The position numbers were made by a program, and so were the translations under genes. A DNA stretch of 64,000 nt, from assembly GCF_932526225.1 (NCBI RefSeq), contig NC_064047.1:1817027-1881026 (forward strand), given 5' to 3'. This DNA is from Nematostella vectensis (lineage: Eukaryota). Shown here piece after piece: positions 6,044-63,787 of the stretch. The notes beneath the pieces were generated by a model that saw nothing but the letters and a program-made list of their open reading frames with translations, was not told the origin of the DNA and did no database searches. The first letter of the stretch is position 1. Each line of letters starts with the position of its first letter.

Positions 6044-6414
6044 CTTGGGAATAGAAAGATAAGGGGCAACTTATAAATTACTCGTCACTTGTTAAATCGG
6101 TAAAATGTCACCAGTTTTACTTTCGGTAATTTGCGTAACAATATCTGATAATTTTTAACGGAAAACGCGAAAAATATTTCAAAATTGTAAAAGCAGTGTG
6201 TCTATTGGAAGTTTCTTTGAGGATGTGATGTGATAATTTAGAAAGGATGGCCTGTTAATAGATTCTTGTCTCTTGAGGTTTTCGTCGGTCCTCCCGAAAT
6301 TAACTGGTGACAATGCCGCCGCTTTAATTACTCGTCACTTTTAAACTACTCGTTGTAAATAACTCGTTACCTGTAAATGACTCGTCACTTGTAAACTACT
6401 CGTTGCTTGTTTAC

Positions 6415-8869: not shown

Positions 8870-9342
8870 CTGGAAAATGGTGTCGGTAGACAAATGATAG
8901 TAATGGTATTGGTGGACAAATGTTAGTGCTAGGTGCTACATCGGCATTGAAAGGTAAACTGTAAAATGATGTAGGTAGACAATAGCTAGAGTACCACCTA
9001 GACGTTAACATGGTCTGCTTGTACAACTCCAATGAACTAGCTCGACTAAATCATCATTTCCGACAATCATTACTTTTTAACCTTTATTCTACAGGGAATA
9101 GCTATTACTAATAGAAATGCTTGGGGGTGTGGCCAGGGGGACGGCTCAGGGGGAGCCCCCCCCCTTCCAGCAGGCAAAAATACAGTAAATCTATGATACA
9201 TTACTACATTACTTAAATACAGGAACAATGCATAATCTGGGCCTTTTTAGGCCACCTCCTGTAATAAATCCTGGCTACGCCCCTGATGGTTTATAACCGC
9301 AGGCTTCCCAACCACGTCATAAGCATGACAATTTAACCATAC

Positions 9343-10619: not shown

Positions 10620-11115
10620 CCTACTTCCTCTTCCTGCATGTCACGTCACGTGATAGTAACCTCCTTTTTTGGGCGGTCACGTCACACAGTACTTACCTCC
10701 TCTCCTCCATTTCCGCCAGGTGATGTATACCCTCTCTCCACCATTTGACGTCACGTGATGATTACCTTTTCTTCCGGTAAGTGATGTCACGTGATTTTTA
10801 CCTTCTCCCTCTGAAGGTGACGTCACGTGATGCTTACCTCTCCTTCCGGCATGAGACGTCACGTGATGCTTACCTCCTCCCTCTGAAGGTGACGCCACGT
10901 GATGCTTACCTCCTCTTCAGGCATGTGATTCTAAACTCTTCTTCAGGCATGAGACGTCACGTGATGCTTATCTTCACTTTCTTAATGTGACGTTACATGA
11001 TGCTCACCTCCTTTTCCGGTAAGTGGCGTCACGTGATTCCTACCTCTTCTTCCAGTATGCGGTGTCACGTGATTTTGACCTTCACCCTCTGCATGTGACG
11101 TCGCGTGATGCTCAC
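10620..11115. repeat. About 60-bp minisatellite (about 8 copies) whose unit is the ASCC3 exon-25 donor junction (minus strand GAGGAG|GTAAGCATCACGTGACGTC)
   Basis: Every unit carries an AG|GTAAGC consensus donor plus a CACGTG E-box and a TGACGTCA CRE-like palindrome. The array abuts the real donor at 11115/11116. Confidence 0.8.
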
Positions 11116-11379
11116 CTCCTCTTCAGGCATGTGCAGCCATTGCTTGGGGTCATCCTGGGCGGCCAGGAAGGCGATCAAGTCCAGGGCTGTTAGTCTGGTC
11201 TGTCTTCTGGACGAGACGAAGACGAGGGTGGGCTTGGTCGGAGAGTGAATCCGGATCGCCTCGAAAGTTGGCTTGTTCATAGTAGCCATACGAGGGCAGT
11301 AATGCTTGCCGGGAAATCCTGTGATGTGAACCTCAAGAGGAACAGGGCGAACTGAAGGTCGGAAGTTGAACATACCAGC
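11116..11379 (-). CDS. ASCC3: ASCC3 exon 25 ([88 protein letters not shown])
   Basis: The [16 protein letters not shown] motif is conserved. Acceptor tccccaag| and donor GAG|GTGAGC. Confidence 0.9.
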
Positions 11380-12419: not shown

Positions 12420-12746
12420 GTCGACCACAAAGATAACTAGTATGAGATCTGCCAGCTCTGACTGACGCTCAGCCCAACAAACCAGTTGCATACTAGTTTT
12501 ACAGGTTAAAGAATCTACCTCTTTAATAATAACCAGATTGACTTGTTTGACATAGCTAAGCGTCTGCCAGCTCTGACTGATCCCAGCCCGACAAGCCAGT
12601 TGCATACTAGTTTTACATGTTTAAATATCTACTTCGTCAATAGTGAGCAGATTGAATTGTTTGACATAGCTACGCGTCTGCCAGCTCTGACTGATCCCAG
12701 CCCGACAAACAAATTGCATACTAGTTTTACAGTTTTAAGTATCTAC
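12420..12746. repeat. 120-bp tandem pseudo-copies (about 3 copies) of the 3' end of ASCC3 exon 23 plus its donor (…SWQTRSYVKQVNLLIIDE|GTAGAT)
   Basis: The minus-strand copies read SWQTLSYVKQFNLLTIDE|GTAGAT and ...IIKE|GTAGAT. Confidence 0.8.
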
Positions 12747-12900
12747 CTCGTCAATAATAAGCAGATTGACTTGTTTGACGTAGCTACGCGTCTGCCAGCT
12801 TCGACTGATGCCGTCCCACTTCTCCGGTGTCGTCACGATGAGGTCAGCCTGGCTAATGGAACGCGAGTCTGGTGTGACGTCACCCGTCAGTTCTATCACC
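12747..12900 (-). CDS. ASCC3: ASCC3 exon 23 ([52 protein letters not shown])
   Basis: Acceptor ccgttgccag| and donor GAG|GTAGAT. The downstream intron carries 2-3 pseudo-copies of this exon's 3' end plus donor. Confidence 0.85.
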
Positions 12901-14399: not shown

Positions 14400-15154
14400 T
14401 TGCGTGATTTCAAGTTGTGTCGCGTGATGTCACGGCCGTCTTACGTGGCCATACGTATCTGTACGAGGATTGGGTGCGTGGCTAGCTTTGTTGCGTGACG
14501 CAATGGCGTTGTATTGCGTTATTCCAAGCAATGTTGCGTGACGTCACAATGCTGTATTACGCAACCATATGTTGCGTGACGCCATGGTGCTGTATTGCGT
14601 GATTTCAATTAATGTTGCGTGACGTCACGGTATAGTATGGAATCACGGGTGGCCCTCTCAACCCTGAATTTCACTTGTTGGACGTATGTGAGCTTACTAG
14701 AAGCTCGTGTTCCTCAGTTCCAAGATGGGTCATTATTAATACATTAGGATTTTAAATGTGAAGCGCTTAGAACATGGTTGATATAAGCGCTACATAAATG
14801 TCAATTGAATTAATTAATTTAATTATTACGCGACCATACAGTGCCTGTATCTGTACGGGGTTATGTTGCGTGACGCCATGGTGCTGTATTGCGATGATTT
14901 TTAGTAGTGTTGCGTGACGTCACGGTGCAGTATTGCGTGACAATACAGTACCTGCATCTGCACGGGGTAGTGTGCGTGACGCCACGGTGTAATGTTTGAA
15001 TTCAAGTAGTGTTGTGTGACGTCACGGTGTAGTATTACGTGACAATACAGTACCTGTATCTGCACGGGGTTGTGTTGCGTGACCTAATGTTGCAGCATCG
15101 CGTGATTTCAAGTAGCATTGCGTGACATCACGGTGTAGTATTACGTGACCATAC
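14400..15154. repeat. 60/120-bp minisatellite (about 6 copies) built from the ASCC3 exon-20 donor junction (minus strand AACCCCGTGCAGATACAG|GTACTGTATTGTCACG, i.e. …NPVQTQ|GT)
   Basis: Each unit repeats the last 18 nt of the exon plus a GTA donor and a TGACGTCA motif. The array abuts the real donor at 15154/15155. Confidence 0.8.
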
Positions 15155-16387: not shown

Positions 16388-17560
16388 CTGAGATCATAAT
16401 GAAAGGGTGTATAATGTGAGATACGAACACATAATCAAGGGGTGTATAATGTGAGATACGAACACATAATCAAGGGGTGTATAATGTGAGATACGAACAC
16501 ATAATCAAGGGGTGTATAATGTGAGATACGAACACATAATCAAGGGGTGTATAATGTGAGATACGAACACATAATCAAGGGGTGTATAGTGTGAGATACG
16601 AACACATAATCAAGGGGTGTATAATGTGAGATACGAACACATAATCAAGGGGTGTATAGTGTGAGATACGAACACATAATCAAGGGGTGTATAGTGTGAG
16701 ATACGAACACATAATCAAGGGGTGTATGATGTGAGATACGAACACATAATCAAGGGGTGTATAATGTGAGATACGAACACATAATCAAGGGGTGTATAAT
16801 GTGAGATACGAACACATAATCAAGGGGTGTATAGTGTGAGATACGAACACATAATCAAGGGGTGTATAATGTGAGATACGAACACATAATCAAGGGGTGT
16901 ATAGTGTGAGATACGAACACATACTCAAGGAGTGTATAGTGTGAGATACGAACACATAATCAAGGGGTGTATGATGTGAGATACGAACACATAATCAAGG
17001 GGTGTATAATGTGAGATACGAACACATAATCAAGGGGTGTATAATGTGAGACACGAACACATAATCAAGGGGTGTATAGTGTGAGATACGAACACATAAT
17101 CAAGGGGTGTATAATGTGAGATACGAACACATAATCAAGGGGTGTATAGTGTGAGATACGAACACATAATCAAGGGGTGTATAATGTGAGATACGAACAC
17201 ATAATCAAGGGGTGTATAGTGTGAGATACGAACACATAATCAAGGGGTGTATAGTGTGAGATACGAACACATAATCAAGGGGTGTATGATGTGAGATACG
17301 AACACATAATCAAGGGGTGTATAATGTGAGACACGAACACATAATCAAGGGGTGTATAATGTGAGATACGAACACATAATCAAGGGGTGTATGATGTGAG
17401 ATACGAACACATAATCAAGGGGTGTATAATGTGAGATACGAACCCAAAATTAAAGGTTGTATAATGTGAGATACGAACACATAATCAAGGGGTGTAGAGT
17501 GTGAGATACGAACACATGATCAGGGATGTATGGTGTGAGATAGGAACTTAAGATCAGGGG
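16388..17560. repeat. 40-bp minisatellite (GGGGTGTATAATGTGAGATACGAACACATAATCAA), about 29 copies, filling about 85% of the intron between exons 19 and 18
   Basis: Direct reading. The unit resembles the last 20 nt of that intron (cattatgatctcag). Confidence 0.85.
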
Positions 17561-20339: not shown

Positions 20340-20882
20340 CGCCGTGTTAGTGAAGTTGGCTGGTCCTTACCTCGATAGTATCGAACTCGATGTAGAAGTG
20401 ACTGGTCGTGTTATCAAGGTCGGCTGGTCCTTACCTCAATAGTATCGAACTCGATGTAGAAGTTTCTGGTCGTGTTATCGAGGTCGGCTGATCCTTACCT
20501 CAATAGTATTGAACTCGATGTAGAAGTTACTAGTTGTGTTATCAAGGTCGGCTGGTCCTAACCTTAATAGTATCGAACTCGATGTAGAAATTTCTGTTTG
20601 TGTTATCAAGGTCGGCTGGTCCTTACCTCAATAGTATCGAACTCGATGTAGAAGTGACTGGTCGTGTTATCGAGGTCGGCTGGTCCTTACCTCAATAGTA
20701 TCGAACTCGATGTAGAAGTAACTAGTCGTGCTATCGAGGTCAGCTGGTCCTTACCTCAATAGTATCGAACTCGATGTAGAAGTTACTAGTTGTGTTATCG
20801 AGGTCGGCTGGTTTTTACCTCATTGGTATCGTACTCGATATAGAAGTGACTGCTCGTGGTCTCAAGGTCGCCTGGTCCTTAC
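20340..20882. repeat. 60-bp minisatellite (about 9 copies) built from the ASCC3 exon-15 donor junction (minus strand …TTCTACATCGAGTTCGATACTATTGAG|GTAAGGACCAGC)
   Basis: Units read FYIEFDTIE|GTAAGG, against the real exon end FYIKYDTIE|GTAAGG. Confidence 0.85.
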
Positions 20883-21047
20883 CTCTATAGTATCGTACTT
20901 GATATAGAAGTGACTGGCCGTTCTACCGAGGTCGGTGGCTGACAAGTAGCCTTGCTCCTCTGCAAATCTGATCATACGGGCCTTGTCCAGTTTACGAGCA
21001 GTCGACACTATCAGCTGCCGTCTGTAATTCTCGAGTGTCGGGTCATC
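20883..21047 (-). CDS. ASCC3: ASCC3 exon 15 (DDPTLENYRRQLIVSTARKLDKARMIRFAEEQGYLSATDLGRTASHFYIKYDTIE)
   Basis: Acceptor ttttcaag| and donor GAG|GTAAGG. The real donor is the first in a ladder of about 10 tandem donor copies. Confidence 0.75.
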
Positions 21048-21818: not shown

Positions 21819-21938
21819 CTCTTTATCCTTGTGAGGAATTCCATAGACTAGAGGGTTCTTGATCATTCGTATGTACAGGTAAGAGTAGCTCAGCCATTCC
21901 ACCGCTTCGTTTACATTAGTAACAGTACCAAGACAAAT
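21819..21938 (-). CDS. ASCC3: ASCC3 exon 14 ([40 protein letters not shown])
   Basis: Start of the winged-helix/Sec63 region. Acceptor cttgtag| and a weak donor GAG|GTTCGT. Phase 0 on both sides. Confidence 0.6.
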
Positions 21939-22400
21939 CTACAAGACAATGTATTACTTGAATGCGGCCTAGAAAGTCAAGTCTGAAAAAAAGGGGTGAT
22001 CATGGGATGTATAATAATCGTGTAGGGTCGAATAGTTATTCCACCGCTTCGTTTACATTAGTAACAGTACCAAGACAAATCTACAAGACAATGTATTAGT
22101 TGAATGCGGCCTAGAAAGTCAAGTCTAAAAAAAAAGGTTGATCATGGGATGTATACTAATCGTGTAGGGTCGAATAGTTATTCCACCGCTTCGTTTACAT
22201 TAGTAACAGTACCAAGACAAATCTACAAGACAATGTATTAGTTGAATGCGGCCTAGAAAGTCAAGTCTGAAAAAGGGGTGATCATGGGATGTATACTAAT
22301 CGTGTAGGGTCGAATAGTTATTCCACCGCTTCGTTTACATCAGTAACAGTACCAAGACAAATCTACAAGACAATGTATTATTAGTTTGGTGCGGCCCAAA
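21939..22400. repeat. 120-bp tandem repeat (about 4 copies) built from the ASCC3 exon-14 acceptor junction (minus strand ttgtcttgtag|ATTTGTCTTGGTACTGTTACTAATGTAAACGAAGCGGTGGAA)
   Basis: Each unit contains the acceptor plus the first about 45 nt of the exon. Confidence 0.85.
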
Positions 22401-22670
22401 ATAGAAAGATGATCGGATGTACTGATTGAGTAGGGGTACCATACCAACGAGAGTTGAAGGGAGAAGGAAATAAATAGGGATAATTCGAGTAAAGTACAGG
22501 AGGTGATAAACGAGGGAGAATGACACAGCAAGCACTGCGACAAAGTAAAAACGCTCAGACAATTCAAAGAGTGAACTTGGCGACATGGAAAAACATAGCG
22601 TGGGCAGGTGGTAGAGCAAAATAAAACCGAGAAGAAACATGACACACGGCACAAAGATTCCGAATATTAC

Positions 22671-22895
22671 CTCTGCATTAAGACTGTCAGTTAAGCTAGC
22701 GGTCAGCGTACTCTCGATTGGAGCCTGCCTGGTCAGCAGTGATAAGTAATGTGACAGTCTGTCATGCGCAGTGATGATTGTCCCTTCACCGAACTTGTCG
22801 AACTGCGGCCGACCAGCACGTCCAAAGATCTGTAGAACATCCAGGATGCCAAGATCCACGAACGAGCCCTTCTTTGCATCGTACACCTCTGTACC
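22671..22895 (-). CDS. ASCC3: ASCC3 exon 13 ([75 protein letters not shown])
   Basis: The [12 protein letters not shown] arginine finger is present. Acceptor ttttacag| and donor GAG|GTAATA. Confidence 0.85.
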
Positions 22896-27642: not shown

Positions 27643-27777
27643 CTGCTTGAGGGCGCTACCGTAGTCTGGGGCCTGCTCTGCCCTGAAGAGCATGGAGTCC
27701 CCCTGATTGGAAGCCATCTCTCTTAACGTCATGGCCGTCCGCACGGTGGCATTTCTAGCATGAACAAACACCATGAC
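27643..27777 (-). CDS. ASCC3: ASCC3 exon 11 (VMVFVHARNATVRTAMTLREMASNQGDSMLFRAEQAPDYGSALKQ)
   Basis: The VMVFVHARNATVRTA motif is conserved. Acceptor tctcttcag| and donor CAG|GTACTG. Confidence 0.85.
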
Positions 27778-27960
27778 CTGAAGAGACAAATAAATAATTA
27801 TAGAACGAACAAACACCATGACCTGAAGAGACAAATAATTCTAGCATGAACAAACACCCTGACCTGAAGAGACAAATAAATAATTATAGAACGAACAAAC
27901 ACCATGACCTGAAGAGACAAATAAATAATTATAGAACGAACAAACACAAACCTGAAAAGA
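27778..27960. repeat. 45-bp tandem repeat (about 4 copies) duplicating the ASCC3 exon-11 acceptor (minus strand ctataattatttatttgtctcttcag|GTCATGGTGTTTGTTC)
   Basis: Direct reading. Each unit has a full polypyrimidine-AG acceptor plus the first 16 exon nt. Confidence 0.85.
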
Positions 27961-28125
27961 TAAATGACTACGTAGATACCATTTTCGTAATCATCACTAC
28001 AATAATTATCATTATGATCACCGTCATCAAAATCGTTTTCTTGTATTCAGATCAGTATGTTTCCGGTATTTTCAGAACAATCACCGTCATGATGATCATC
28101 ATCGACGTGATCATGAACATTACCG

Positions 28126-28994: not shown

Positions 28995-29243
28995 CTGGTA
29001 GCCCTTCTCCACGTTTTCTGTGACCTTCTCATAGCAGATCTTATCCATCTCGTGCGCTTGCTGGAACGGGTTCAGCCCTTTCACCCCGATGAACGTCTGT
29101 CCGAGGGGGACTGGGCGAAAACGTGAGTCGAAGGCGAAAAGACCTTTGTACGGGTCCACCCTTAGGAAGTGTGCGACGTCCAGATAGTTAGGGAGAGTAG
29201 CAGACAGTCCGACAATGCGAATCATGGACTGCGAGGATAACAC
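28995..29243 (-). CDS. ASCC3: ASCC3 exon 10 (VLSSQSMIRIVGLSATLPNYLDVAHFLRVDPYKGLFAFDSRFRPVPLGQTFIGVKGLNPFQQAHEMDKICYEKVTENVEKGYQ)
   Basis: Helicase motif III (SAT) is present. Acceptor attgtag| and donor CAG|GTATAG. Confidence 0.85.
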
Positions 29244-30400
29244 CTACAATACATATTAAGATAAATTCCAACAGATGGTTAGGAAGAGTGGCAGATAGGC
29301 CGACAATGCAAATCCTAGACTGTGAGGACAAAACCTACAATACATATTAAGATAAATTCCAACAGACGGTTAGGGAGAGTGGCAGATAGGCCGACAATGC
29401 AAATCCTAGACTGTGAGGACAAAACCTACAATACATATTAAGATAAATTCCAACAGATGGTTAGGGAGAGTGGCAGATAGGCCGACAATGCAAATCCTAG
29501 ACTGTGAGGACAAAACCTACAATACATATTAAGATAAATTCCAACAGATGGTTAGGGAGAGTGGCAGATAGGCCGACAATGCAAATCCTAGACTGTGAGG
29601 ACAAAACCTACAATACATATTAAGATAAATTCCAACAGATGGTTAGGGAGAGTGGCAGATAGGCCGACAATGCAAATCCTAGACTGTGAGGACAAAACCT
29701 ACAATACATATTAAGATAAATTCCAACAGATGGTTAGGGAGAGTGGCAGATAGGCCGACAATGCAAATCCTAGACTGTGAGGACAAAACCTACAATACAT
29801 ATTAAGATAAATTCCAACAGATGGTTAGGGACAGTGGCAGATAGGCCGACAATGCAAATCCTAGACTGTGAGGACAAAACCTACAATACATATTAAGATA
29901 AATTCCAACAGATGGTTAGGGAGAGTGGCAGATAGGCCGACAATGCAAATCCTAGACTGTGAGGACAAAACCTACAATACATATTAAGATAAATTCCAAC
30001 AGATGGTTAGGGAGAGTGGCAGATAGGCCGACAATGCAAATCCTAGACTGTGAGGACAAAACCTACAATACATATTAAGATAAATTCCAACAGATGGTTA
30101 GGGAGAGTGGCAGATAGGCCGACAATGCAAATCCTAGACTGTGAGGACAAAACCTACAATACATATTAAGATAAATTCCAACAGATGGTTAGGGAGAGTG
30201 GCAGATAGGCCGACAATGCAAATCCTAGACTGTGAGGACAAAACCTACAATACATATTAAGATAAATTCCAACAGATGGTTAGGGACAGTGGCAGATAGG
30301 CCGACAATGCAAATCCTAGACTGTGAGGACAAAACCTACAATACATATTAAGATAAATTCCAACAGATGGTTAGGGAGAGTGGCAGATGGCCGACAAGGC
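29244..30400. repeat. 90-bp minisatellite (about 13 copies) built from the ASCC3 exon-10 acceptor junction (minus strand tatgtattgtag|GTTTTGTCCTCACAGTCTAGGATTTGCATTGTCGGCCTATCTGCCACTCTCCCTAACCATCTG)
   Basis: Unit = the last about 27 nt of the intron including the acceptor, plus about 63 nt homologous to the exon start (real: GTGTTATCCTCGCAGTCCATGATTCGCATTGTCGGACTGTCTGCTACTCTCCCTAACTATCTG). Confidence 0.85.
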
Positions 30401-30599
30401 AAATATTAAACATCCTCTGTCTTAGCCATTTTATCATCCTAGCAAAGCACCACTTTTATCGGCTAAATAAGGGGAATTAATGTCATATTTTAGATTGAAT
30501 TTGTTAAATAAAGAATCAAACTTTGTTTTTAGATGGCCTCTAGATGTCTTACTAACACATGAGAGATTAGCGAACAGCAAAACAAATAATGCAACGTCC

Positions 30600-30790
30600 T
30601 TGCTTAAAGCCTCAGGGATACTCGGGTTTTGCTCGGAAATGCCGATGATTTCCTGTTGTAACGTCCTCGCTATAAAAAGCCTCAGGGCTTTTCGGGATTT
30701 ACTCGGAAATGCCGATGATTACCTGTCGTAACGTCCTCGCTAAAAAGTCTCGGGACTAATCAGGGTTTACTCGGAAATGGCGATGATTAC
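30600..30790. repeat. 60-bp tandem copies (about 3 copies) of the ASCC3 exon-9 donor junction (minus strand GCGAGGACATTACGACAG|GTAATCATCGCCATTTCCGAG)
   Basis: Direct reading. One copy has its donor mutated to GAAATC. Confidence 0.8.
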
Positions 30791-30955
30791 CTGTCGTAAT
30801 GTCCTCGCCACAAGGCACTCAATGACGGAGCCACGGTCATCATGCAGCAAATGAACCTCGTCAATGATGAGTAGCTTGACAAGCTGAGCCAGCGCTACAT
30901 CTCCAGTGGACTTACGTGTGACAACATCCCACTTTTCCGGGGTAGTGACAAGCAT
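30791..30955 (-). CDS. ASCC3: ASCC3 exon 9, containing the DEVH box ([55 protein letters not shown])
   Basis: The DEVH motif and a TTPEKWD motif are present. Acceptor tgtcgcag| and donor CAG|GTAATC. Confidence 0.85.
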
Positions 30956-59047: not shown

Positions 59048-61339
59048 GTAAGAGAAGTGGATTATAGGGAGCTTGAAGCTCGAATCTGGGTTCCACTCTT
59101 TGTGCCTGGGGCTATATTGTGTATGTTTGTGGTGATTTTTATTTCGTACATCCAGTACATAGAATGAAGTGATGGCAGAAAGTGTCGAAAATGTGGGGAT
59201 GAACATGGTGGGTGGGTGCTAGTGAAAAAAAGTCAGGATTTCCATGATAGCGACAGTGGATGGGGAAAACTGAAACGTTTGTAATAATTAGGGTAGTGAG
59301 AATATAAAGAATATGCTTCGTATGTACGTGACGATCTAACTTATCTAGAAACATCTCTGAAATTGTTTATAAACCTCTAGATCAAGAATTAATTAAATGC
59401 GTGTTTTGTTTTGTAATAGCACTAAAAAGAAAAATAAACAATTTTGTGAAGATCATCAATTTCAAGCCATAGTGTGATGGACAAGAACTTAAAAGCAACA
59501 CATCATCTTTTGTTTCAAAGCAGACGTAAAAATGACTATTTCTCTACTTCGGCTTATTTTAGACCTTTTGATACGTTTGGTAAGCTGGGGTCTGATAGAC
59601 ACACCTTTAGAAATGTTCCCGAAGAGAAGACAGAAATGTGATATGCCATTTGCCTTTAAAAGACCTATCATTCGTTTTGAAACATGAGGTGGGGAGGAGG
59701 GCTGATTAACACTCTTTAATAAACAAAAACAGGTATCAAGCAGATGCTTGTCAATGTACACTTACTCATTCCCTGTTTGGGTTGAGAGCGTAAAATTCAA
59801 TTAAAACCAGGAAGCTTAGCCCAAGTGTGCCCCCTTATGGTAATGTCAGCAGTCAAGATAGGGGCTACTAGGTTACGCTCGGACAGACAAAACAAAAAGA
59901 ATGGAGCAATTAATAAGTTTTTAACTCTTTAACCGATAAAAGGTCAGAGGTGAGCTCGAGCTTGTAGAGATATTTATTTTATTTTGAGGCATCGAGGGAG
60001 TAGTACGGATGATGGTCTACACTGTGTGGAAACCCCAAAAACAGTGAAGATAAAGAAAAGAAGAAAAAAAGCCGGGAATAGTTAAATGCAAACCGTTGAA
60101 AAATATCAATTGGAATAAAGCCGCTCAAAAAAAAATCTAGCTTAGAATATAACTCGATTCACAGACCCATTTGCCCCTTAAGCTTTTTTTTTTGGCAATA
60201 TAGTAATTCCTAGAAATGCCATATTTGCCATATTCGCGTGACCATTGAAGGGAGTTGGATATAGCAGCAACTGGATCATAAACAATCCAAGTGTCACAGC
60301 CAGGACAGAGCAGAAAAACTTGCACGAAACACGATTAAGCATTCTATTAGTGTCTTACATTCAGTTTTGCATAAATTCATTCTGATATTGCATAAATGAT
60401 CCACGATATGAAGTCCAACGGCTTGCTTAGTAACAGCCTCTGGCATAGCCTCTGAGAGAACAATCTTGTCTAGTTCTTCGTTACGTCATTTCCTGTTTAC
60501 GATTGCGTAGGCGTGCCCAGTTCTCCTCCGGTCTGCCCCAAGGATGATGGTCGACGAAACGGCTTGAAGACATTTGGAAGTCATCAAGCCTCTGTTAGCG
60601 GTTGAATATCCTAAACGGCACTAAAATCCTTCCTCTGCTCAATACCTTTTCTTTCGCTGTGTGTATCATTTCTTATTTGTTCAAACTACAAGCGCATCTC
60701 AATGTTCCTTTTTTAAAGTTTATTGGATTACGTCATCGTGTGGTAAAAAATTTGCCTTTCAGATATTCGAAACCTGGCTTTTAATGTTTTAAAAACATGT
60801 TTGATGAGTCCAAGAAGAAATGGTTAAATGTTAACTCAAAAGAAGAGCTACGTCTTTTTTCGTGACGTGCTGACCCTATTAGTAAGCATTGTTGTATGTA
60901 TATGCGCCATTTGGAAAGAGTTAGTGATGCCGGCATATTTACAGCCTTTGAAAGGCCCCGTTAGGGGCTTAACCAGACAAGCTCATCTATCATATAGCGA
61001 TTTGTACGTCTCATTACATGAATTACGCTCATTTAGTTTAAACCTTTCGGCGTCGGCCTTTTGGTCAGTTTAAACTACCGAAGACGGTTATTACAGCAAT
61101 TAGTAACCCAAAAAGCCGCAGATTGGAGCAGATAGTTCCACATGGATGTATTTTGTTTCCTTTTTTGAGAGTGATTACACTCTAATAAATAGCATATTTC
61201 TAGTTACAGGGGCGTTTAAGGGTCAATGGGTAAGAGGTAGTGAAAGGCAGTGTGGGGGGACTTCATGTAAGATGGTTTGACCATTTAGTCGTTCGGTATT
61301 TGAGCAAATGTGTGATAATTCTGTTAATGCTTGAGGGTG

Positions 61340-62132
61340 CATTTTTGCCGCCATTTGTTCTGACACCTCTGTTACCATGTTTGCAAGCGCATGTTTCCCG
61401 CCATTTGTTCTGACACCGCTGTTTTCTGTTTGCAGGCGCATGTTACCTGCCATTTGTTCTTGTACCGCTGTTTTCATGTTTGCAGGCTCATGTTTCCCGC
61501 TATTTGTTATGAAACCGCTGTTTTCATGTTTGCAAGCGCATGTTTCCCACCTTTGTTCTGACACCGCTGTTTTCATGTTTGCAGGCGCATGTTTTCCTCC
61601 ATATGTTTGATACCGCTGTTATCATGTTTGCAGGCGCATGTTTCCCGCCATTTGTTCTGATACCACTGTTTTCATTTTTGCAAGCGCAAGTTTCCCAAAA
61701 TTTGTTCTTATACCGCTGTTATCATGTTTGCAGGCGCATGTTTGCTGCCATTTGTTCTGACACCGCTGTTTTCAAGTTTGCAGGCGCATGTTTCCCGCCT
61801 TTGTTCTGACACCACTGTTATCATGTTTGCAGGCGCATGTTTCCCGCTATTTGTTCTGACACCGCTGTTTTCATGTTTGCAGGCGCATGTTTTCCACCAT
61901 TTGTTATGACACCGCTGTTTTCATGTTTGCAAGCGCATGTTTCCCGCTATTTGTTCTGACACCGCTGTTTTCATGTTTGCAGGCGCATGTTTTCCACCAT
62001 TTGTTCTGACACCACTGTTATCATGTTTGCAGGCGCATGTTTCCCGCTATTTGTTCTGACACCGCTGTTTTCATGTTTGCAGGCGCATGTTTTCCACCAT
62101 TTGTTATGACACCGCTGTTATCATGTTTGCAG
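61340..62132. repeat. 50-bp minisatellite (about 15 copies) built from the TBX20 exon-3 acceptor junction (unit GCGCATGTTTCCCGCCATTTGTTCTGACACCGCTGTTTTCATGTTTGCAG)
   Basis: Each unit ends in the acceptor tcatgtttgcag| and restarts with the first 19 nt of exon 3 (GCGCATGTTTCCCGCCATT). The last unit is the real acceptor and exon. Confidence 0.9.
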
Positions 62133-62249
62133 GCGCATGTTTCCCGCCATTCGCGTGAAGGTGTCTGGTTTGGATCCCCATGCGCACTACATACTAGTGA
62201 TGGATGTAATACCGCTGGACGGCAAACGCTACAGATACGCATATCATAG
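62133..62249 (+). CDS. TBX20: TBX20 exon 3 ([39 protein letters not shown]-)
   Basis: RMFP...VSGLDP...[12 protein letters not shown] is the TBX20 signature. Acceptor tgtttgcag| and donor AG|GTAAGT. Confidence 0.9.
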
Positions 62250-62810: not shown

Positions 62811-62869
62811 GTGAGTGTTCATTGATAGCTAGGCATGATGTCCGCATGACAATATATGCTGATGCTGAT

Positions 62870-63600
62870 GCTGCTGCTGCTGCTGCTGATAATGGTGGTG
62901 GTGGTGATGGTGGTGGTGGTGGTGGTGGTGGTGGTGGTGGTGGTGGTGGTGGTGGTGGTGGTGGTGGTGGTGGTGGTGGTGGTGGTGGTGGTGGTGGTGG
63001 TGGCGATGGCGATGGCGATGGCGATGGCGATGGCGATGGCGATGGCGATGGCGATGGCGATGGCGATGGCGATGGCGATGGCGATGGCGATGGCGATGGC
63101 GATGGCGATGGCGATGGCGATGGCGATGGCGATGGCGATGGCGATGGCGATGGCGATGGCGATGGCGATGGCGATGGCGATGGCGATGGCGATGGCGATG
63201 GCGATGGCGATGGCGATGGCGATGGCGATGGCGATGGCGATGGCGATGGCGATGGCGATGGCGATGGCGATGGCGATGGCGATGGCGATGGCGATGGCGA
63301 TGGCGATGGCGATGGCGATGGCGATGGCGATGGCGATGGCGATGGCGATGGCGATGGCGATGGCGGTGGCGGTGGCGATGGCGATGGCGATGGCGATGGC
63401 GATGGCGATGGCGATGGCGATGGCGATGGCGATGGCGATGGCGATGGCGATGGCGATGGCGATGGCGATGGCGATGGCGATGGCGATGGCGATGGCGATG
63501 GCGATGGCGATGGCGATGGCGATGGTGATTGTGATGGTGATGGTGATGGTGATGGTGATGGTGGTCATGTTGTTGATGATGATGATAATGATGATGATGA
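62870..63600. repeat. Compound microsatellite (GCT)n-(GGT)n-(GGCGAT)n-(GGTGAT)n-(GAT)n, about 730 bp, in TBX20 intron 4
   Basis: Direct reading. All four long six-frame ORFs here are artefacts. Confidence 0.95.
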
Positions 63601-63622
63601 TATGCTTTTTCTTTGCAAATAG

Positions 63623-63787
63623 ATAATCCTCCACTCAATGCACAAGTACCAGCCACGGATTCACATCATCAGAAAGAAAGACACGAGCGAAGCCAGTATT
63701 GACATCGATCGACCTTGCTCGGAGAGGAAAACCTTTACATTTTCCGAAACCATCTTTACCACCGTCACCGCCTACCAAAATCAACAG
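63623..63787 (+). CDS. TBX20: TBX20 exon 5 ([55 protein letters not shown]); the gene continues beyond the window
   Basis: The MHKYQPR.HII.KKD and TAVTAYQNQ motifs are present. Acceptor caaatag| and donor CAG|GTAACT. Confidence 0.9.

Follow-up and report, generated by a model that had tools for sequence, protein, structure and literature searches.

The tandem array described here lies in an intron of a minus-strand gene of Nematostella vectensis that is, judged by its protein sequence, the orthologue of ASCC3. The peptide encoded by the two joined exons matches Pfam PF23445, the SNRNP200-type winged helix, and the exons joined at 22671/21938 (SLNAE|...) align without a gap to residues 431 to 542 of human ASCC3 (PDB 8alz_B); on these grounds we regard both the gene assignment and the exon junction as secure. 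The gene was mapped within a stretch of 64,000 nucleotides (the window), which has 41.9% GC and is dense in minisatellites (63 TRF rows). Its minus-strand extent is about 36.3 kb to 4.0 kb. An exon map guided by the best full-length homologue, P0124, a Logan transcript (SRR19426867) that is 68% identical, allowed 23 donors and 24 acceptors to be refined. The exons are free of stop codons over 573 plus 700 codons (1,273 codons in 21 exons), and the protein is 68 to 74% identical to its snail, shark, and teleost orthologues alike. Homology searches with segments of 115 and 573 amino acids returned identities of no more than 78%, from an index seemingly limited to proteins of up to 1,000 amino acids, and the poorly conserved N-terminal exon had no match in the homology search; exact look-ups with two ORFs of the window likewise gave no match. 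Some 20 to 26 residues of P0124 (within 1003 to 1029) are unplaced between the exons at 20883 and 18816 on the minus strand; a small exon may be hidden where a weak HSP (20388-20350) falls on the far end of a 64-bp array.

The intron in question is 732 nt long in the splice model (21939-22670, minus strand). It follows an exon of 225 nt (22671-22895), which codes for ...SLTDSLNAE, ends in AATGCAGAG, and was placed both by the P0124-guided splice model and by the ungapped alignment to human ASCC3. The intron opens with a GT at 22669-22670 (GAG|GTAATA) that scores 9.3 bits with the gene's own donor matrix, and it is followed by an exon of 120 nt (21819-21938) with the donor GAG|GTTCGT (7.0 bits) at its end. 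For the latter exon the label "exon 14" used in the initial annotation is plausible. After about 215 nt of unique sequence (22456-22668, outside the TRF array), the unit TTGTCTTGTAG|ATTTGTCTTGGTACTGTTACTAATGTAAACGAAGCGGTGGAAT is read four times. TRF describes the array at 21896-22380 with a period of 142, 3.4 copies, 96% matches, and a score of 903, and a repeat search gave start-to-start spacings of 142, 142, and 140; such an array goes far beyond what chance would produce. Each unit comprises about 99 nt of the 3' end of the intron, the AG, and 43 nt of exon, and the 142-bp unit has no copies outside the array (blastn against the 64-kb window). This points to a local duplication, and on this search of the window the insertion of a dispersed repeat or transposon was rejected.

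Exact matching located four minus-strand acceptor cores, TTGTCTTGTAG|ATTTGTCTTGGTACTGTTACT, with the AG at 22364/63, 22224/23, 22082/81, and 21940/39 and the first exon base at 22362, 22222, 22080, and 21938, respectively. The exon body is attached to the last of these only. This authentic copy 4 (21896-22037) includes 99 nt from the 3' end of the intron, has its AG at 21939-21940, and covers the exon start at 21896-21938, from which it runs on into GGCTGAGCTAC/GGCTGAGC (EWLSYSYLY). The other three are decoys that continue after 43 exon-like nucleotides into AACTATTCG rather than into the exon body. Copy 3 (22038-22179, 142 nt) has its AG at 22081-22082 and its exon-like part at 22038-22080 (43/43 identical), and copy 2 (22180-22319, 140 nt) has them at 22223-22224 and 22180-22222 (43/43). 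Copy 1 (22320-22455), at the edge of the array, has its AG at 22363-22364 and an exon-like part at 22320-22362 with 42/43 identities; its diverged outer part extends to about 22455. The copy number, taken from one assembly, may be inexact.

The initial annotation had described four copies of a 120-bp unit at 21939-22400, each with 45 nt of exon. Four acceptors are indeed there, although one of them is the authentic site, so that three are decoys. The unit length has to be corrected to 142 bp (with one spacing of 140) and the exon portion to 43 nt, and the span given covered only the intronic side of an array that also takes in the exon bases 21896-21938. Its central observation, that the unit reaches from the end of the intron across the AG into the exon start, holds in all copies. 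That reading had been made to depend on the unit aligning across the acceptor, and it does so: positions -17 to +43 are identical in all four copies, apart from a single A>G at +22 in copy 1.

How does the spliceosome find the right acceptor among four? All four score 7.7 bits (rank 7 of 24) when judged by a matrix of the 24 acceptors refined in this gene. The decoys carry the branch-point motif CTAAT at -16 (-19 in copy 1), and the real copy has GTAAT. By their sequence, local signals would favor the real site not at all, and the decoys appear, if anything, slightly better. Since these signals give the real site no edge, discrimination would rest wholly on context beyond +43. Near the acceptor, a single base sets the real copy apart from decoys 2 and 3 (21957-21962, minus strand): some 20 nt before the AG, a C>G destroys CTAAT and creates CAA|GTAATA, the donor hexamer of the intron itself; the latter is probably a coincidence.

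Strong donors are limited in this region to the sites at 22671 (9.3 bits) and 21819 (7.0 bits). Within the array, no donor-like site exceeds 4.1 bits, whereas real donors have a median of 8.7 (leave-one-out). The authentic acceptor lies 120 nt from the donor at 21819, and the decoys lie 544, 404, and 262 nt from it; none of these three would-be exon lengths is divisible by 3. Moreover, each decoy reads ...NEAVE* in translation, with an in-frame TAA directly after the 43 nt. The stop codons fall at the unit junctions, at 22318-22320 (GTG GAA TAA) after decoy 1, 22178-22180 after decoy 2, and 22036-22038 after decoy 3.

Ligation of the upstream exon to a decoy creates GAG|ATTTGT, which scores 1.0 bit as a donor, compared with 7.4 bits for the 10th percentile of real donors. 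Recursive splicing through the 142-bp array is ruled out, as the decoys read AG|ATTTGT and the ligated junction has no GT; a decoy once chosen is therefore beyond recursive rescue. Masking of the decoys by RNA structure was likewise rejected. The fold of the intron with its array is less stable than those of shuffled controls (z=+2.5) and no relevant inverted repeats were found, so structure does not hide the decoys. Rfam had no match in the window, and the opposite-strand and alternative-frame ORFs matched no Pfam family.

The 142-bp array is one of many in this gene. Minisatellites make up 36% of the intron bases of ASCC3 (span 6043-33340) and cluster at intron ends. Among the 22 TRF arrays within the gene, 7 straddle a splice junction and include 18 to 63 nt of exon, compared with 1.55 expected if founding duplications fall at random in the gene and wholly exonic ones are excluded [P(>=7)=0.00035]. 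An array end lies within 7 nt of a junction in 11/22 cases and within 65 nt in 17/22, the latter against 8.5 expected from random placement of each array in its own intron (P<5e-5). Four arrays, at 6329-6410, 8876-8927, 14824-15154, and 16395-17547, stop short of the exon and end 0 to 7 nt from a splice site. The units at 10746-11133 and 14489-15154 are rich in TGACGTCA- and CACGTG-like palindromes (CRE- and E-box-like).

Four of the seven straddling arrays duplicate donors and three duplicate acceptors, which bears out the earlier suggestion that both ends of exons are affected. The donor-side arrays, all on the minus strand, are at 20343-20935 (junction 20883, 53 nt of exon, 8 intact decoys), 12448-12809 (junction 12747, 63 nt, 2 intact decoys), 10746-11133 (junction 11116, 18 nt, 6 intact decoys), and 30593-30808 (junction 30791, 18 nt, 1 intact decoy). 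Besides the 142-bp array, the acceptor side is represented on the same strand by 27753-27965 (junction 27777, 45 bp x 4.7, 3 decoys) and 29181-30404 (junction 29243, 91 bp x 13.5, 12 intact decoys). Altogether, 17 decoy donors and 18 decoy acceptors are intact; two further decoys, both in donor-side arrays, have lost their GT. At 27753-27965 and 29181-30404 the decoys read AG|GT, and ligation to them regenerates a 5' splice site, CAG|GT, of 6.8 to 9.3 bits, which is within the range of real donors. From these scores, stepwise recursive splicing through both arrays is conceivable. With no such rescue in the 142-bp array, an error would cost more there than in these two. An eighth boundary array lies on the plus strand in a T-box gene (61339-62151, 50 bp x 16), where the acceptor TTTGCAG| and about 19 nt of the exon at 62133-62249 are repeated and the real acceptor is preceded by at least 13 decoys.

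The copies of the 142-bp array differ in a way that hints at their history. Copies 2 to 4 are mutually 93 to 100% identical. Copy 1 matches the real copy at 63/68 positions in the proximal intron and exon but at only 47/87, with indels, in the distal part (Fisher P=5e-8). Copy 1 is thus a chimera, and the decay at its edge is what would be expected if the ends of an array escape homogenization by unequal exchange. The exon part of the decoys is not significantly better conserved than the intron part: copies 2 and 3 have 0/86 differences in the former and 9/198 in the latter (P=0.06). The unit breakpoints revealed no convincing microhomology (GGAAT|AACTAT compared with GGAAT|GGCTGA and CCCTTC|AACTCT).

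The intron itself is older than the array. Homology stops at LNAE|V in 55/120 homologous ORF fragments from genomic contigs of other organisms, which we take to mean that the reading frame there continues past a GT donor of identical position and phase. Because the position is common to other organisms, the intron was not created by the duplication, and birth of the intron by tandem duplication was rejected. By this comparison the intron position is ancient, and the duplication lengthened an intron that was already there.

Tandem repeats that span an intron-exon boundary are a known phenomenon, and to our knowledge the published cases are all from cephalochordates. By later accounts, the name "mirage" was given to such repeats in amphioxus Adh3 (Canestro, Gonzalez-Duarte & Albalat 2002). 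Mirages were subsequently described in the amphioxus globin genes BflGb6 and BflGb9, with units of 150 to 160 bp on the acceptor side in BflGb6 and of 157 bp on a donor side (PMC3087553), and in TnC and PGBD5 (PMC3902484); published unit sizes range from 10 to 160 bp. RT-PCR indicated normal splicing of amphioxus mirage genes (PMC3087553, PMC3902484), and haplotypes vary in copy number, with 6 versus 3 copies in one case (PMC3087553). The globin study also noted the "exclusion of cluster boundaries" from homogenization (PMC3087553).

The ASCC3 array resembles these cases closely. It is arranged head to tail, its unit crosses the intron-exon boundary and copies a splice site together with a piece of exon, and the authentic site is the terminal copy joined to the exon, with the other copies being intronic. 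As in amphioxus, acceptor- and donor-side cases occur, the decoys mostly keep their AG or GT, and inner copies are homogenized while edges have diverged; the unit of 142 bp is also close in size to that of BflGb6. On its architecture, then, the array has every structural feature of a mirage and is a further example of a known phenomenon. What differs is the host gene, ASCC3, and the fact that normal splicing and length polymorphism are established for the amphioxus cases. In contrast to the single-gene reports from amphioxus, the arrays are also far denser: one gene has 7 of them with 35 intact decoys, and its neighbor has another. The phenomenon has been known since 2002 in a handful of amphioxus genes, and its gene-wide density in ASCC3 is unusually high.

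A natural model for the choice among identical sites is the 37-bp VNTR in intron 7 of human F7 (Borensztajn et al. 2006, PMC1557585), in which the terminal unit of a minisatellite likewise holds the authentic site and identical pseudo-donors stay silent. There, the most upstream donor is selected by 5'-to-3' scanning (PMC1557585). The F7 repeat is on the donor side and its most upstream site wins, whereas the ASCC3 array is on the acceptor side and its most downstream site must win; plain 5'-to-3' scanning of the kind demonstrated for the F7 donors would pick decoy 1 here. The Rogers model of intron gain, in which a duplicated exonic AGGT segment gives a new intron (Hellsten et al. 2011, PMC3265369; Drosophila, PMC2891723), shares with our case a local tandem duplication that brings duplicated splice signals and an extra copy that is spliced out, but the ASCC3 intron is ancient and was merely lengthened. 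Recursive (ratchet) sites of the AG|GT type are resembled by the arrays at 27753-27965 and 29181-30404 and not by the 142-bp array with its AG|ATTTGT.

The last 99 nt or so of an ancient ASCC3 intron were duplicated locally together with the first 43 nt of the next exon and expanded to four copies, so that the intron holds three extra copies whose acceptors cannot be told from the real one. The decoys presumably have no function of their own and are tolerated since use of the copy with the exon body leaves the mRNA unaltered; the array as such would result from frequent minisatellite formation and be tolerated as its by-product. The gradient of divergence suggests that unequal exchange may homogenize the inner copies and leave copy 1 to decay at its outer edge. 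The copy attached to the exon is probably picked by cross-exon pairing, as no other acceptor is so close (120 nt) to the sole strong donor downstream, and the array seems to contain nothing that could close a decoy "exon." Transcripts spliced to a decoy would carry a TAA after 43 nt and a frameshift, and are predicted to be removed by nonsense-mediated mRNA decay (NMD). We infer the silence of the decoys, the cross-exon selection, and the clearance by NMD from sequence. Taken as a whole, the account of a mirage-type boundary minisatellite, a functionless and tolerated duplication in which the exon-proximal copy is chosen and NMD clears the errors, is in our judgment probable.

The case for cross-exon selection is strengthened by the occurrence of both types of array in one gene. 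The first copy is needed in a donor-side array and the last copy in an acceptor-side array, so that no rule of scanning in one direction can serve both. Pairing of nearest partners across the intron would make the wrong choice in both types, and pairing across the exon (exon definition) would make the right one in both.

The main alternative to a tolerated by-product is that the decoys have been selected for regulated unproductive splicing, which would divert a tunable share of the ASCC3 pre-mRNA to decay and thereby set the level of expression. In its favor, none of the three decoys is damaged or weaker than the real site, each leads immediately to a stop codon, and GT or AG is kept in 35 of the 37 decoy sites across the gene. 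Intactness, however, is expected anyway from young or homogenized arrays, and the identity of 93 to 100% extends over whole units, beyond the splice signals. Similar arrays are found at seven ASCC3 junctions on both sides of exons, with units of 36 to 142 bp, and also in a T-box gene that is unrelated to ASCC3; such recurrence across junctions and genes points to a genome-wide mutational pattern rather than to gene-specific regulation. The amphioxus cases, too, gave no aberrant mRNAs, and we regard a regulatory role as improbable. An effect of RNA structure or of coding on the opposite strand can be practically discounted as the reason for the repeat, given the poor folding (z=+2.5) and the lack of inverted repeats and of Pfam or Rfam matches reported above.

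It is also very improbable that the array or its copy number is an artifact of assembling a repeat-rich, heterozygous genome, even though one amphioxus mirage region was misassembled in the draft genome and haplotypes there had 6 versus 3 copies (PMC3087553). The copies of the ASCC3 array differ by substitutions and a 2-nt indel and the outer part of copy 1 has decayed, which is unlike the collapse or expansion of a repeat in assembly, and seven more independent arrays of similar architecture are present in the window. A last possibility is that the array is an intermediate in the birth of an exon or intron, with decoy exon pieces becoming mini-exons or the intron having been created by the duplication. 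A decoy acceptor combined with the donor GCG|GTGGAA would indeed give an in-frame cassette of 36 nt, and such a route was proposed in the globin study (PMC3087553). But that donor, the sole one that keeps the frame, scores 2.3 bits against the median of 8.7 for real donors (leave-one-out), the repetition of 12 residues in a conserved winged-helix domain is probably harmful, and the intron position is common to many other animals. Hence, we give this idea hardly any weight.

One observation does not fit the tolerated by-product preferred here: arrays are more frequent at junctions than a random origin combined with purifying selection would predict, and neutrality alone does not account for this. 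We can speculate, though we think it unlikely, that boundary-anchored minisatellites arise preferentially at junctions and are a main route of intron growth and turnover, and that the spliceosome follows a rule by which the exon-proximal copy wins. A preferential origin at junctions may come from replication slippage or from repair tied to exon edges, transcription, or splicing. If this were true, nonrecursive acceptor arrays would reveal a rule beyond 5'-to-3' scanning or nearest-partner pairing across the intron.

Irrespective of its origin, the 142-bp array is a clean natural experiment, with four acceptors that are alike in branch-point region, polypyrimidine tract, and AG and are followed by a common 43 nt of exon, without recursive rescue and with a stop codon per decoy as a built-in readout. 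The combination of donor- and acceptor-side arrays in one gene adds to its value, as it separates cross-exon pairing from any single scanning rule. The density of the arrays and their excess at junctions suggest that a genome-wide survey of junction-straddling minisatellites is worthwhile; we found none in the searchable literature. At such arrays, spliced aligners and gene predictors are likely to misplace junctions.

Several other features of the window were noted. A BLOC1S3-like ORF (Pfam PF15753, E=1.7e-11) at 39584-39913 on the plus strand is arranged head to head with a candidate first coding exon of ASCC3 at about 38619-38920 on the minus strand (MEVPRLTGSLRAFS...), and the two genes probably share a common bidirectional promoter. 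Exons of a matrix metalloproteinase at 44209-46376 (plus strand) encode a PG_binding_1 domain with the cysteine switch PRCGMPD and a Peptidase_M10 domain, and large C-rich arrays follow downstream of them at 47079-51585. On the plus strand, long (TGG)n, (TGGCGA)n, and (GAT)n microsatellites at 62857-63602 stop about 20 nt before a T-box exon whose start is near 63623.
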